Below are positions 25,775 through 41,837 of a DNA stretch of 53,091 bases, in pieces. Origin of the DNA: Candidatus Uhrbacteria bacterium. GTDB lineage: Bacteria > Patescibacteriota > Patescibacteriia > UBA9934. The stretch lies in NCBI GenBank assembly GCA_943354605.1, contig CALRCK010000005.1, forward strand, positions 1 through 53,091, written 5' to 3'. The stretch's first letter is position 1; every line of letters begins with the position of its first letter. The notes under the pieces are model-generated. The model was not told where the DNA came from. It ran no database searches and saw nothing but the letters and a program-made list of their open reading frames with translations. The position numbers and the translations under genes were made by a program.

Positions 25775-25899
25775 TGGAACTTCCTCGTTTGGTCGATTTT
25801 CGACTCAGATCATCGGAAACTTCCTCAACGTACCGTTACGTACGTCTCGGAAGATTTCCTTGATCTTCATCGAAACTCGCCGCAAATGAGAAACTTCCA
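25775..25899 (+). repeat. Rod-like imperfect palindrome (~125 nt) containing the 77-nt core copy 1 (25811-25887)
   Basis: Outer pairing tggaacttcc / gaaacttcca. The core catcggaaacttcctcaacgtacc..gtacgtctcggaag.tttcct...aaact.gccgcaaat is shared with 41748-41824. Confidence 0.55.
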
Positions 25900-29251: not shown

Positions 29252-30278
29252 ATGCGGAGGAGCGCGAAAAAATTGAAGGTGGCGATTTCTTTAATTCCTC
29301 CGTTTGTCATGAAAACTGGCGAGAAATATGCGGGTTTCGAAATTGATCTTTGGGAAATGATTGCCAAAGAAATGGGGGGGGGTGAAATTTGAGTACTCAC
29401 TGCATAATTTTCAGGATTTATTTCCTTTATTGCAAAAGAGGAAGGCAGATGTTGCTTTTGCTTCTGCATCGGTGAACGAGGAACGGGAGAAGATTGTCGA
29501 TTTTTCGCACCCAACGGTTCATTCTGGACTTCACATCCTTCTTTCAAAAAATCGGAGAGATATTCATCTCATGAATACAATAAAGGCTTTTTTTAGTGAG
29601 GGGTATCGTCAATTATTGAAGCCCATTTTTGCTTTATTATGCATTATTTTCATTTTTGCAAACATGCTTTGGTTCTTTGAGCGATCCGGTGGAGATTTTA
29701 TTCCGACATATATCCCTGGAATTTTTCAATCCTTTTGGCTTTCCTTGTGCGTCATTATTGGCACTGATGGTGGATTTTTTCTCTATAATGTTTTTACTTG
29801 GCCTGGAAGAATATTAATAACGATTGGACAAGTAATGAACCTTGCTGTTCTCGGTCTTTTTGTTGGAGAATTGACCGCCTTCATCACAACAAGAAAAATT
29901 CGGTCAAACATTGAATCTCCAGAAGATTTACAGGACCATACAGTGGCGACGGTAAGAGGGACAACGAGTGAAAGTTGTGCGAAGCAATATGGAGCAAAAG
30001 TTATATCAGTGACGACTATTGACGAAGCGTACAAAAAACTTCGGAAGAATTCCGTTGATGCTGTAGTGTTCGATGCACCGGTACTCCGATATTTCTCCCG
30101 CAATAGTGGAGGAGATTGGTCCGAGGTTGTTGGCGAGGTTTTTCAAAAACAAGACTGTGCGTTCATGTTAAGAAACGATAGTGTTTTACGAAAAGATGTG
30201 AATCTTGCCTTATTGGTGCTTCACGAAAATGGATCGTATGACGCGTTGCAGAAAAAGTGGTTTGGAGAGCGGGAGTAA
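29252..30278 (+). CDS. GluR0-like ligand-gated ion channel (SBP_bac_3 lobes split by M1-P-M2), interrupted by a +1 frameshift at a G9 tract
   Basis: Frame A (ATG 29252) reads MRRSAKKLKVAISLIPPFVMKTGEKYAGFEIDLWEMIAKEMGGGEI*. Frame B continues GGVKFEYSLHNFQDLFPLLQKRKADVAFAS. Membrane core FANMLWFFE...SFWLSLCVIIGTDGG...LAVLGLFVGELTAFITT. The S2 lobe ends KKWFG. Confidence 0.65.
29374..29382 (+). repeat. G9 homopolymer at the frameshift site
   Basis: Counted directly as 9 consecutive G. A G8 tract would fuse the two frames (…EMGGVKFEY…). Confidence 0.85.
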
Positions 30279-37701: not shown

Positions 37702-38348
37702 GTCTTGTTGTTGATCATCTTTCCATTGCCCGCGCCGGAAAAGAAATCCTTTCGGATATTTCTTTTGTTTGTGAACCTGGTGAACTTATCGTGATCCGCG
37801 GAAAAAATGGGGCAGGGAAGAGTTCGTTGCTTTCTACGTTGATGGCGTTGCCTGGTGTTGAGGTTGTCTCGGGAAACTTTTCAATCGACGGCGAATCGTT
37901 AACCTCAAAGAAGACGTACGAGATTGCACGATCTGGAATGTTCCTTGCGCACCAAGAGCCACCAGCGATTGATGGCGTCTCTCTTGGTGTTGTTGCTCGT
38001 GCGGCACTCGAGACGATGTGCGGTGTAACGGAAGTCCCCGAGGCGCAGCGCCGCATTCGCGAAGCCCTCGCGCAACTCAGCTTGCCCGAAGACTTCGCAC
38101 ACAAAACGTTGCACGCCTCGATGTCGGGCGGCGAAAAGAAGCGTGCGGAACTCTTTCAGCTCGTGCTCTTAAAACCAAGATTCGCATTGCTCGACGAAAT
38201 CGACTCTGGCCTCGACGCCGCCGCCTGCGCCATCACCGCATCCGCAATCGCAAAGCTCCGATCATCCGGAACCGGCTTCGTCGTCGTCACACATTCGGAT
38301 GCGTTTGCGGAGGCGTTACAGACGACGAAAACGATAAAAATTGGGTAA
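37698..38348 (+). CDS. sufC: Fe-S cluster assembly ATPase SufC
   Basis: Walker A GKNGAGKSSL, signature MSGGEKKR and Walker B ALLDEIDSGLD. ATGA overlap with sufU. Confidence 0.9.
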   Translation: MSLVVDHLSIARAGKEILSDISFVCEPGELIVIRGKNGAGKSSLLSTLMALPGVEVVSGNFSIDGESLTSKKTYEIARSGMFLAHQEPPAIDGVSLGVVARAALETMCGVTEVPEAQRRIREALAQLSLPEDFAHKTLHASMSGGEKKRAELFQLVLLKPRFALLDEIDSGLDAAACAITASAIAKLRSSGTGFVVVTHSDAFAEALQTTKTIKIG

Positions 38349-38400
38349 AGGAGCTGCGGTAAAACATTGCGAACATTAGCCAAGAAAATGCTGTTCTTGC

Positions 38401-38429
38401 TTGACAAAACGGCATTTTTCTGCTATGAT
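38401..38429 (+). promoter_or_regulatory. Near-consensus sigma70 promoter of the DGR target gene
   Basis: TTGACA, 17 nt, then TATGAT. GGAG lies 6 nt before ATG 38485. Confidence 0.5.
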
Positions 38430-38484
38430 AAAAGGGTAAGTTTCAATTGATCCCTCCTTCAACCCTGCACATTCTGGAGCTTTC

Positions 38485-38994
38485 ATGGATGCCACCACCG
38501 TTCTTTCCCTCGTCTCTGCTCTTCTCGCCGACACCAGCATCTTCGGAGCCGCCAAGCGCGCCAAGCTCGAGGCACTCCTCGCGGAGAAGCCGCCGATCGG
38601 TGGCATGATCGTCCAGTTGTTGGCGCTCACGCCGAAGTTCGACTGGGTCAATCCGGAGATCACGGACGAGCACTTTCCGACGGTCGAGCCGAACCTGGAC
38701 GGTGCGCAGCTCGAACACTACGGCAAGAGCATGTCTTCCACAGCTGTTCTCGCTGACTTCAAGAGCCGTGGCCGTCGCGCCGCCACCGCCGCCGAAACGC
38801 TTCTCTACGGGATCATGAATCCGGAGGAGCAGCGGAAGTACTGGATCGTTGGTCTCGGCCAGGTCTGGCTCTACCCCGGCATCGGCGATTACGTCGTCGT
38901 CTTGGACGAGCACGATCGCGAGCGTTACGCGAGCCTCTACGCCTTTGCGCGCGACTGGTATGCGAGCTACCGCTTCCTCTCGTTCCCGCAATAG
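38485..38994 (+). CDS. DGR variable (target) protein, 169 aa, VR at the C-terminus
   Basis: The last 43 codons are the VR. GC-rich. No signal peptide or TM seen. Confidence 0.8.
   Translation: MDATTVLSLVSALLADTSIFGAAKRAKLEALLAEKPPIGGMIVQLLALTPKFDWVNPEITDEHFPTVEPNLDGAQLEHYGKSMSSTAVLADFKSRGRRAATAAETLLYGIMNPEEQRKYWIVGLGQVWLYPGIGDYVVVLDEHDRERYASLYAFARDWYASYRFLSFPQ
38861..38991 (+). repeat. DGR variable region (VR)
   Basis: 131 bp matching 39387-39517 with 15 mismatches, 14 of them opposite TR adenines. It ends at the last sense codon. Confidence 0.85.
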
Positions 38995-39386
38995 TTCGGC
39001 ACTTGGAACCTTGGGCACTTGGGCCTGGCGCTCGAACCCTTGGTTACTGGTCGGATGGTTACGGTTTTACGCGGTTCGCACGTCGCGCTCTGTCCTACGA
39101 AGGACGGGGCGCGATTCTGTTTGATATACTTTTTTTTGGAAAGTAGATTGGTAAGGCTTGCGGCTACGAATGGCTTCGGGCGATCGAAATCTGGAATACG
39201 CGGAATGTGCCAGAAGATGGATTCGTTTTGCGAATCGTCGTGCGCCATTGCTTGTTTCTCCAACATGAACTCATTGGTACAAAACCTGGTGAGCGTATTG
39301 GCTCCACAATATATTCAATCCTGAGTCGCACCATGTGCTCGCGTCGAGGGATGGTGGTATGGATGGTTTTTGTACACATTGGTGGG

Positions 39387-39517
39387 AGGTCTGGCTCAAC
39401 CCCGACAACGGCGATTACGTCGTCGTCTTGAACGAGAACGATCGCAAGCGGAACGCGAACCTCAACACCTTTGCGAACGACTGGAATGCGAGCAACCGCT
39501 TCCTCTCGTTCCCGCAA
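39387..39517 (+). repeat. DGR template region (TR)
   Basis: The Asn-codon-rich copy (…WLNPDNGDYVVVLNENDRKRNANLNTFANDWNASNRF…). Noncoding context. Confidence 0.85.
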
Positions 39518-39527
39518 CGGGTTCATG

Positions 39528-39557
39528 AATACTCCCACCAAAACTGGTGGGAGTATT
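39528..39557 (+). other. Perfect 13-bp hairpin 10 nt downstream of the TR
   Basis: aatactcccacca-aaac-tggtgggagtatt. It overlaps the avd stop codon on the other strand. No T run on either side. Confidence 0.75.
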
Positions 39558-39876
39558 ACTGTAACGAGGCCATCCACTTTCCGAGCATTTTCCCAACGTC
39601 ATTAAGGGGACTTCCCAGTGTGCTATAGGGTTTTGTTTCAATAAGTTTGAGTTCCCAAATAATATTGAGAAAGAATTTGAGCGCATCAAACTTCACGCTT
39701 GCACGCTGAAGAATTTGCAGTTTTTCCGTTCGTTTACTATATGCAGCGAGAAGAATGAGTTCGAGCACATCACAAAAGAGTGTGTCGATTTTTGCGCCAA
39801 GAGTATATCGGTTTAGGCGCGGAAAGTTTTTGAGCTGGTATTGCCAAGCCTTGTAAATTTCACTCAACGTATGCAA
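39556..39876 (-). CDS. avd: Avd-like accessory variability determinant (four-helix bundle, 23S rRNA IVS protein family), antisense to TR and RT
   Basis: LSEIYKAWQYQLKNFPRLNRYTLGAKIDTLFCDVLELILLAAYS...KFDALKFFLNIIWELKLI...LNDVGKMLGKWMASL. The only plausible in-frame start is TTG at 39876. The ORF-track N-terminus would overlap the RT. Confidence 0.6.
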   Translation of the reverse strand: MHTLSEIYKAWQYQLKNFPRLNRYTLGAKIDTLFCDVLELILLAAYSKRTEKLQILQRASVKFDALKFFLNIIWELKLIETKPYSTLGSPLNDVGKMLGKWMASLQ

Positions 39877-39886
39877 AACAGGAACA

Positions 39887-40936
39887 TTGCCGAACGCGTT
39901 TTCGGGGGGGGGCGAGCATAATCGAAAGATTTTTAGGATTTCATTTGAAGAAATAGTATCAATGGAAAATCTGCTTGATGCGTGGAGTGAATTTTTGGTG
40001 GGGAAACGGAAGAAACCTGATGTACAAACGTTCAAACAGAATCTTTTAGAGCATGTTCGCATGCTGCACGACGATCTTGTTGGGCATCGCTATCAGCACG
40101 GCGCATATTACCATTTTCGTATCACCGATCCAAAACCAAGAGATATTCATAAGGCAACGGTTCGCGACAGGCTTCTCCACCATGCAATTCATCGCAAACT
40201 GTATCCGTTATTTGATCAAGTCTTTATTGCGGATTCGTTTTCGTGTCGCGTTGAGAAAGGAACGCACAAGGCGATGGATCGATTTCGAGCTTTTGTACGA
40301 CAGGTGAGCAAGAACGACACGCGAACATGTTGGGCACTCAAATTGGATATCCGAAAGTTTTTCGCGAGTATCGATCACGATCTCTTGTTATCGATACTGT
40401 ATCAACGAATCCCAGATTTAGAACTCATGTCGTTGTTTGAACGTATCATTGACTCATTTCATGGGAATGAGCATGGAAAGGGAATTCCATTAGGAAATCT
40501 CACGTCACAACTTTTTGCGAATGTGTACTTGAATGCCCTGGATCAATTTGTGAAACACGATCTTCGATGTAAATATTACATTCGGTACGCCGATGATTTT
40601 GTGGTGTTGTCGGAAGATCGGGATTGGCTCGTGAAACAACTGCCGAAGATTGATACGTTTTTGTGGGACATGCTTCGACTACTATTGCATCCAAAGAAGA
40701 TTGAGCTTCGCACTTTTGCATCTGGTGTTGATTTTTTGGGGTGGAACCATTGGCCAAGCCACAGAACATTGAGAACGGTGACGAAAGAGCGTATGTTTCG
40801 TCGCTTGCTTCAAAAGCCAACGGAACCCGTTTTTGGTTCGTATTCAGGTTTGCTCCAACACGGGAATGCACAAAAGATCGAAAACGAGCTTAAAAATACA
40901 CGCTGGTTTTTTTCAAGAGAGATGAATCTCGTATGA
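39887..40936 (+). CDS. DGR-type reverse transcriptase
   Basis: SFEEIVSMENLLDAWSEFLVGKRKK N-terminus, DIRKFFASIDH, GIPLGNLTSQLFANVYLNALD (DGR hallmark) and YIRYADDFVVL. The start is uncertain (TTG 39887 or ATG 39962). Confidence 0.85.
   Translation: MPNAFSGGGEHNRKIFRISFEEIVSMENLLDAWSEFLVGKRKKPDVQTFKQNLLEHVRMLHDDLVGHRYQHGAYYHFRITDPKPRDIHKATVRDRLLHHAIHRKLYPLFDQVFIADSFSCRVEKGTHKAMDRFRAFVRQVSKNDTRTCWALKLDIRKFFASIDHDLLLSILYQRIPDLELMSLFERIIDSFHGNEHGKGIPLGNLTSQLFANVYLNALDQFVKHDLRCKYYIRYADDFVVLSEDRDWLVKQLPKIDTFLWDMLRLLLHPKKIELRTFASGVDFLGWNHWPSHRTLRTVTKERMFRRLLQKPTEPVFGSYSGLLQHGNAQKIENELKNTRWFFSREMNLV
39904..39912 (+). repeat. G9 homopolymer between the avd start and the conserved RT N-terminus
   Basis: Counted directly. 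It encodes GGG if the RT starts at TTG 39887, and lies 50 nt upstream of ATG 39962. Confidence 0.85.
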
Positions 40937-40985
40937 ACTTAGCACTCTTCACAAGGGACTGCTAATCGGGTACTCTTAAGGGACT

Positions 40986-41710: not shown

Positions 41711-41837
41711 GTGGGAGGGTTTTATTTGGGCAATTTTGGCCTTGCGCCATCGGAAACTTCCTCAACGTACCATGAAGTACGTCTCGGAAGCTTTCCTCGT
41801 CGCGCGCCCAAACTTGCCGCAAATAAAACCCTCCCAC
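41711..41837 (+). repeat. Rod-like 127-nt hairpin element H3 containing the 77-nt core copy 2 (41748-41824)
   Basis: An 18-bp perfect basal stem gtgggagggttttatttg / caaataaaaccctcccac, extended by ggcaa/ttgcc. The apical part is the conserved core. Confidence 0.6.

Follow-up and report, generated by a model that had tools for sequence, protein, structure and literature searches.

Does a short sequence that closes a small gene and recurs downstream of it on a chromosomal contig belong to a diversity-generating retroelement (DGR), and if so, of which kind and in what state? The contig, CALRCK010000005.1 of the Candidatus Uhrbacteria bacterium assembly GCA_943354605.1, was analysed over its 53,091 nt, forward strand (hereafter the window). 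An earlier reading of its letters, made without database searches (the sequence-only reading), had proposed a DGR between the suf operon and clpP, with a target gene ending in a variable repeat (VR), a template repeat (TR), an accessory variability determinant (Avd) and a reverse transcriptase (RT). The DGR reading stands, on adenine-specific mismatches, a VR at the 3′ end of an open reading frame (ORF), an SQ motif in the RT, the RT of Bordetella phage BPP-1 (bRT) as best relative and an Avd homologue. Because these features are joined by the gene layout, a covarying TR RNA and relatives with the same cassette, we conclude, with a probability of roughly 0.9, that the locus is an intact chromosomal DGR of the candidate phyla radiation (CPR)/Patescibacteria type with architecture B3.

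The two repeats differ at template adenines

A repeat search of the window recovered the predicted direct repeat, 38861–38991 (VR) and 39387–39517 (TR), with 89% identity and a spacing of 526 nt. No further VR-like copy was found in a window-wide search. Compared base by base, the copies differ at 15 of 131 positions, and 14 of these are adenines in TR, which the gene copy replaces by T (six), G (six) or C (two). The sequence-only reading had arrived at the same count, and had named a lack of bias towards TR adenines as the outcome that would speak against a DGR; with 33 adenines in the 131 nt of TR, the hypergeometric probability of 14 or more adenine hits among 15 mismatches is 4.3e-9. The sole non-adenine mismatch, the G-to-T change that had also been listed, pairs TR-G 39451 with VR-T 38925; it affects the third position of an Arg codon and is silent (CGG/CGT).

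VR lies at the 3′ end of ORF 38485–38994 (169 aa), where it had been placed, and spans 43 codons plus 2 nt rather than 43 codons exactly; the peptide strings cited for the two copies were both reproduced. Of the 32 in-frame TR adenines, 31 occupy codon positions 1 and 2 (13 and 18, respectively) and one occupies position 3. Read in the VR frame, TR contains nine AAC codons, and a single codon (AAG) is able to mutate to a stop.

A DGR-type reverse transcriptase and an inverted avd gene

ORF 39887–40936 matches Pfam RVT_1 (E = 6e-21) and contains both motifs read from the sequence beforehand, PLGNLTSQLFANVYL and YIRYADDF. Besides YADD, it carries LGNLTSQ, which fits (I/L/V)GxxxSQ, the signature of DGR RTs in RT domain 4 (PMC3521204). 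In the PDB, its best solved relative is bRT (8ub7; E = 3.7e-43, 151 bits), with group II intron and retron-type RTs at ~64 bits. Homologues number more than 8000, the closest named ones being from Patescibacteria, and the N-terminal extension FSGGGEH is kept in close relatives. A scan of NCBIfam returned no DGR-RT model; its best match was a group II intron RT model (133.7 bits, cut-off 300), and models of retrons and of defence-associated RTs (DRTs) were also far below their cut-offs.

The neighbouring ORF 39556–39876 scores above the cut-off of Pfam bAvd (E = 2e-12; 48 bits, cut-off 40), which upholds its earlier assignment as Avd; no strand had been given, and the gene is on the minus strand. 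Its match to NCBIfam DivGenRetAVD (E = 7e-19) reaches 68 bits against a cut-off of 80, and a PDB sequence search with Avd gave no meaningful match. The avd and RT genes are divergent, their TTG starts ~10 nt apart.

Related loci share the layout and diversify in nature

The order TR(+), avd(−), RT(+) is architecture B3, TR-(avd)-RT, which makes up 90% of the CPR DGR set of Wu et al (2018; PMC5758913). We compared the window with 80 metagenomic loci (L013–L092) whose RTs are 53–64% identical; 44 had enough flank for layout and alignment. Every one of the 44 shows VR, ~270–420 nt, TR, avd(−) and RT(+), with adenine-biased mismatches, and wherever avd was found in a related locus, it lies opposite to RT. 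The TR-encoded peptides follow a common pattern across the lineage.

Two of these loci, L090 and L091, show no differences over 2438 nt other than the length of a G-run and undetermined bases in VR: set against L091 (1540–1657), L090 (383–500) has N at 17 VR positions, all of them TR adenines. These Ns directly document natural diversification within this DGR lineage.

A CPR-restricted clade of DGRs, clade 2, has been described as cellular, with small targets that lack recognisable transmembrane or conserved domains (Roux et al, 2021; PMC8144416). By host, target type and best matches, the window element appears to fit this clade. It is an ordinary member of a large and already described class, whose layout is abundant in Patescibacteria: hundreds of CPR elements of B3 architecture, with RTs 53–75% identical to that of the window, share its TR/avd/RT order and strands, its cellular chromosomal location and its small, domain-less target. 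It shows no difference in kind from them, and its target family is rare (13 homologues).

The cassette is a bounded chromosomal insertion or deletion

Annotation of the flanking genes puts the element where it had been reported, with SufB/D/S/U/C upstream and ClpP downstream. A 16S rRNA gene (not linked to a 23S gene within the window), tRNAs, RNase HII and VanW complete a chromosomal gene set. The best named match of SufS is from a Patescibacteria metagenome-assembled genome (MAG; 88% identity), as are the best named matches of the RT, and the closest cassettes, with A-biased VR/TR pairs, come from Candidatus Uhrbacteria MAGs; these matches identify the host as a Patescibacterium.

A sister genome (L093; SufS 87% identical, flank DNA 73–92%) has the same gene order, with only 69 nt between sufC and clpP (L093:10200–10300). 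Homology with the window ends just past the sufC stop (~38317–38380) and restarts at the RT stop (40933). Since the cassette is missing at this junction, the 2.56-kb segment is an indel of exactly the promoter, target, TR RNA gene, avd and RT, and the cassette including its target is thus a module gained or lost between sufC and clpP. An imperfect direct repeat, GAAC(A)TTAGC, flanks it; this short repeat may be due to chance, and we give it little weight. Relatives L094 and L095 carry HD-domain genes at the sufC/clpP intergenic site, and related cassettes lie in unrelated neighbourhoods.

Base composition also sets the cassette apart: the target has 62% GC and avd/RT 43%, with 52% for the window as a whole. 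The same split recurs in L001, L002 and L003, giving over the four loci ~60–62% in the target, 57–59% in TR and 43–46% in avd/RT, whatever the GC of the surrounding genome.

TR lies within a conserved, structured RNA

The ~250 nt upstream of TR are better conserved than the proteins of the cassette. RNAalifold on the 44 aligned loci predicted 46 pairs, 40 of them with compensatory double changes. Of the alignment cells concerned, 90.9% were paired, compared with 69% after column shuffling and ~45% when partners were slid by 1–3 columns; none of 500 shuffles matched the observed covariation score, and the minimum free energy z-score of the window RNA is −3.2. Predicted helices lie at ~39156–39181, 39277–39375 (enclosing two hairpins) and 39318–39352. 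The 12-bp helix that closes around the two hairpins, 39277–39288 with 39365–39375, ends 11 nt 5′ of TR.

Downstream of TR stands a predicted stem-loop (Table 1), whose helix (alignment columns 666–672/704–710) persists throughout the lineage by way of compensatory changes. It is followed by a T-run in most relatives, degenerate in the window, which argues that the TR RNA is a separate transcription unit. We infer that TR sits in a separately promoted RNA made up of a conserved extended −10 element, a ~250-nt leader, TR and the hairpin. A promoter scan had made a weaker call at the same spot, with TTGATA as a −35 box; it was dropped in favour of the extended −10 after the 44-locus alignment.

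Rfam gave no match in 38950–40000, either at the gathering score or at E up to 1. In BPP-1, RNA flanking TR wraps the bRT-Avd complex, and Avd-binding stem-loops just downstream of TR have been predicted in 207 of 278 DGRs, CPR included (Handa et al, bioRxiv 10.1101/2023.10.23.563531). By this analogy, the structured TR RNA would be the expected functional counterpart of the BPP-1 flanking RNA and involves no new principle.

Candidate cis elements at the end of VR

In DGRs, the VR 3′ end holds the site of initiation of mutagenic homing (IMH), with a counterpart, IMH*, in TR. The last 23 nt of VR, which follow the last A-mismatch, are identical to those of TR, so that IMH and IMH* are indistinguishable by sequence. 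The tail occurs only twice in the window, against 0.02 occurrences expected by chance. Its identity in the two copies and its GC-rich character had been recognised beforehand; the length is 23 nt rather than the ~24 nt given, and the string then quoted has 22 nt (64% GC). Identical IMH and IMH* occur in some DGRs, for which discrimination through the flanks has been anticipated, and a GC-rich inverted repeat after IMH, required in BPP-1 and Legionella, is present in 34% of DGRs and so is not universal (Wu et al, PMC5758913).

No hairpin directly follows VR in the window: the next 85 nt fold worse than shuffled sequences (z = +1.79), and no hairpin occurs before the terminator, 90 nt further downstream. 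Directly after the target stop codon stands instead an unstructured array of CTTGG pentamers. The motif CTT[GTA]G follows VR in 44 of 44 related loci, at a mean of 3.4 per 80 nt, ~14-fold above the background of 0.24, and with spacings of 7 and 8 nt predominating; the site after VR is the only one in the window with at least four copies per 80 nt. No such array was present after three target homologues without an adjacent DGR core (L004, L010 and L011). Since IMH equals IMH*, the recipient must be recognised through flanking sequence, that is, the array after VR and the hairpin after TR, and the CTTGG array is the obvious candidate for a cis signal that marks the recipient.

A poly-G tract at the avd/RT junction

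A G9 tract lies within the 5′ end of the RT ORF. Of 67 related loci, 60 carry a G-run of 6–14 (mostly 9–11) at the avd/RT junction, and in 34 of these 60 the run precedes the first RT start codon. Being outside the RT coding frame in these 34, the run is conserved at the DNA or RNA level rather than through glycine codons; the explanation that G9 merely encodes a conserved Gly-Gly-Gly was rejected on this ground. In the window and in its closest relatives, an open RT N-terminus is available only by reading through the G-run; in the window, no ATG or GTG lies upstream of the conserved N-terminus, and translation needs a TTG start and read-through of G9. The near-identical loci L090 and L091 carry G10 and G9, respectively, which reflects either an unstable tract length or a tract that is hard to assemble.

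Only two G/C runs of at least 8 occur in the 53 kb, the junction tract and a second G9 at 29374–29382. The latter splits a gene for an SBP_bac_3/Lig_chan solute-binding or ligand-gated-channel-like protein (29252–30278) into two frames: the upstream frame ends in EMGGGEI followed by a stop, and the downstream frame goes on with GGVKFEYSLHNF. Adding one G or removing two restores a single ORF. Either the site is a contingency locus, or the homopolymer was misassembled.

The target is a small protein of a rare family

The target protein matched no family in Pfam or NCBIfam, and only 13 homologues were found among 5.8 billion proteins. In their alignment the scaffold is conserved and hypervariability is confined mainly to the VR columns; homologues P0006 and P0007 differ only within VR. 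An AlphaFold2 model built on this alignment was confident, with a predicted local distance difference test (pLDDT) score of 91. In Foldseek, the top PDB and BFVD matches of the model were all C-type lectin domains, at weak scores (best E = 9e-3, ~1e-2; template modelling (TM) score 0.3–0.5). The model thus weakly suggests that the target may be a minimal, divergent C-type-lectin-like fold after an N-terminal helical segment. A PDB sequence search with the target profile gave no meaningful match and no similarity to any solved variable protein, and no signal peptide or membrane span was obvious by eye in the sequence, in line with the account of CPR DGR targets by Roux et al (PMC8144416).

The closest target homologues, at L010:5001–5513 (73% identity) and L011:5001–5519 (60%), adjoin genes for TrmB-family regulators. 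No TR, avd or RT was found within 4–5 kb of either; the VR-equivalent segment has nonetheless diverged. These homologues may be remote or orphaned DGR targets.

Weighing the alternatives

Several points weigh against an intact DGR. One difference between the repeats, at 39451/38925, lies outside the adenines. The RT depends on a TTG start and on read-through of G9, the Avd score is under the curated NCBIfam cut-off, and the classical GC-rich inverted repeat after IMH is lacking. The Foldseek scores behind the lectin-like assignment of the target model are weak (E ~1e-2; TM 0.35–0.5 in the PDB). Finally, a second contig of the strain (L012, 99.9% identical over 1756 nt) has an identical VR and thus no sign of ongoing diversification in this element, a weak objection, as L012 may share the population. 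Part of this evidence would suit a DGR by descent that is now silent, its VR frozen from past retrohoming and the element switched off or decaying. VR is unchanged in the only other contig of the strain, the synonymous non-adenine difference suggests time since the last homing, the G9 through which RT translation must pass from its TTG start is in frame and prone to slippage, and in L010 and L011 target homologues stand with no DGR nearby. All parts are intact, however, including the YADD and SQ motifs, a full-length Avd and TR adenines kept at codon positions 1 and 2; the lineage-specific cis elements are all conserved; and the identical VR of L012 counts for little if that contig is from the same population. 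We therefore consider a silent element unlikely, though it is the most probable of the alternatives.

An RT of another class (group II intron, retron, or the abortive infection and DRT defence systems) next to an ordinary 131-nt duplication would account for the NCBIfam scan, in which a group II intron RT (133.7 bits) and DRT families were the best models and no DGR-RT match appeared. Those scores fall well short of the cut-offs (133.7 against 300), bRT leads all other solved relatives by a wide margin, and the SQ motif, the adjacent Avd and the asymmetry of the mismatches (p = 4e-9) all speak otherwise, as does the lack of any intron RNA or retron family in the Rfam search; adenine asymmetry, Avd homology and bRT similarity together refute this explanation. 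We also considered a DGR carried by a phage or prophage, with a receptor-binding tail protein as its target, given that the BPP-1 prototype and many gut DGRs are phage-borne and that the cassette is an indel of deviant GC (target 62%, avd/RT 43%, window 52%). It is very improbable here: the cassette is flanked by suf genes, clpP, VanW and a 16S rRNA gene and holds only the four DGR parts, the target of 169 aa has no tail-fibre domain, and the CPR clade has been described as cellular (Roux et al, PMC8144416). An intact chromosomal element of the CPR type remains our preferred reading.

Proposed mechanism and comparison with known systems

The steps by which the intact element would act are modelled on the BPP-1 paradigm; its parts, their order and strands, the asymmetry, the RNA structure and the cis motifs are as observed here. 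RT and Avd would bind the structured TR RNA. Priming near the IMH*-like 3′ end of TR would be followed by reverse transcription of TR, with misincorporation opposite its adenines and a stop near the 5′ helix. The cDNA would then replace VR, recoding up to ~20 codons (nine of them AAC) and allowing ~10^18 possible peptides, and the residues so changed would fall in the C-terminal strands of the target, a small binding protein of predicted C-type-lectin-like fold.

The BPP-1 DGR (mtd-avd-TR-brt), the mechanistic prototype, shares with the window element the adenine-specific flow from TR to VR, a homologous RT, an Avd homologue, an IMH-like GC-rich end and a stem-loop just after TR, as well as a C-type-lectin-like fold with VR at its C-terminus, the fold being weakly predicted in the window. 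Unlike in BPP-1, avd is inverted here and lies between TR and RT; TR is preceded by a dedicated non-coding leader rather than by avd coding sequence; IMH equals IMH*, with a CTTGG array in place of the GC hairpin/cruciform after IMH; and the element is chromosomal rather than phage-borne. Closer in target type are the AvpA-type variable proteins of DPANN and CPR DGRs, which are also small and domain-poor, with VR making up the C-terminal portion of a lectin-like fold (Handa et al, 2016; PMC5006420). The window target differs from them in having no detectable sequence similarity to solved variable proteins and a fold match to generic C-type lectins (E ~1e-2).

To our knowledge, the mechanism of DGRs in the CPR branch is poorly understood and no element has been reconstituted. 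The window adds a complete, well-delimited Patescibacterium DGR with a rare and very small target, useful for annotation and unsurprising. Of greater value are the by-products of the comparison: a bounded 2.56-kb presence/absence cassette, a TR RNA gene supported by covariation, the CTTNG array and the junction poly-G, the last two being testable candidates for target recognition and regulation. We tentatively propose, as a possibility that falls well short of likely, that CPR-type DGRs use cis elements unlike those of BPP-1, with the post-VR CTT(G/T/A)G array as recipient mark and the junction poly-G as a stochastic on/off or dosage switch. If so, an unstructured array with a 7–8-nt period would replace the IMH-adjacent hairpin, telling VR from TR where IMH equals IMH*, and a slippage-prone poly-G (6–14 G) would set the on/off state or dosage of the mutagenic machinery; the window carries both elements. 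Full-text searches, which did not extend to the CPR survey of Paul et al (2017), returned no published description of a CTTNG array or a junction poly-G.

Feature coordinates and a neighbouring repeat

Table 1. Positions of the DGR cassette and its parts in the window.
Feature	Position	Strand	Basis and remarks
Whole cassette, 2.56 kb	38381..40938	.	Indel relative to L093; flanks GAACATTAGC (38371–38380) and GAACTTAGC (40935–40943)
Putative target promoter, sigma-70-like	38401..38429	+	Consensus scan, 11/12 matches; TTGACA, 17-nt spacer, TATGAT, TG before −10
Target (variable protein) gene, 169 aa	38485..38994	+	ORF; without Pfam or NCBIfam family
VR	38861..38991	+	Direct repeat and base-by-base alignment
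IMH-like VR 3′ end, 23 nt	38969..38991	+	Alignment; identical to TR end 39495–39517
CTTGG array, candidate cis element	38995..39050	+	Copies at 39002, 39010, 39018 and 39039; directly after stop codon, unstructured
Terminator-like hairpin (39082–39115) with T-run, closing the target transcript	39082..39137	+	Predicted; kept in L001–L003
Putative extended −10 of TR RNA gene, TGATATACT	39122..39130	+	Aligns with TGnTAnAAT-like boxes in the 44-locus alignment
Structured leader of TR RNA	39137..39386	+	RNAalifold on 44 loci
TR	39387..39517	+	33 adenines; 9 AAC codons in VR frame
Post-TR stem-loop, 12–13 bp	39528..39557	+	Predicted fold; 10 nt after TR, overlaps avd stop codon
avd, 106 aa, TTG start	39556..39876	-	Pfam bAvd; NCBIfam DivGenRetAVD
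DGR reverse transcriptase; 349 aa if started at TTG 39887, 324 aa if at ATG 39962	39887..40936	+	RVT_1; LGNLTSQ, YADD
Poly-G tract, G9, candidate regulatory element	39904..39912	+	Inside RT ORF 5′ end; 28 nt from avd start

Just downstream of clpP, a 112-nt sequence (41725–41836) has a 75%-identical copy ~16 kb upstream, at 25788–25899. The copy near clpP is largely palindromic (inverted repeat 41711–41837), with perfect 18-nt arms at 41711–41728 and 41820–41837, and the pair may represent a small repeated intergenic element.

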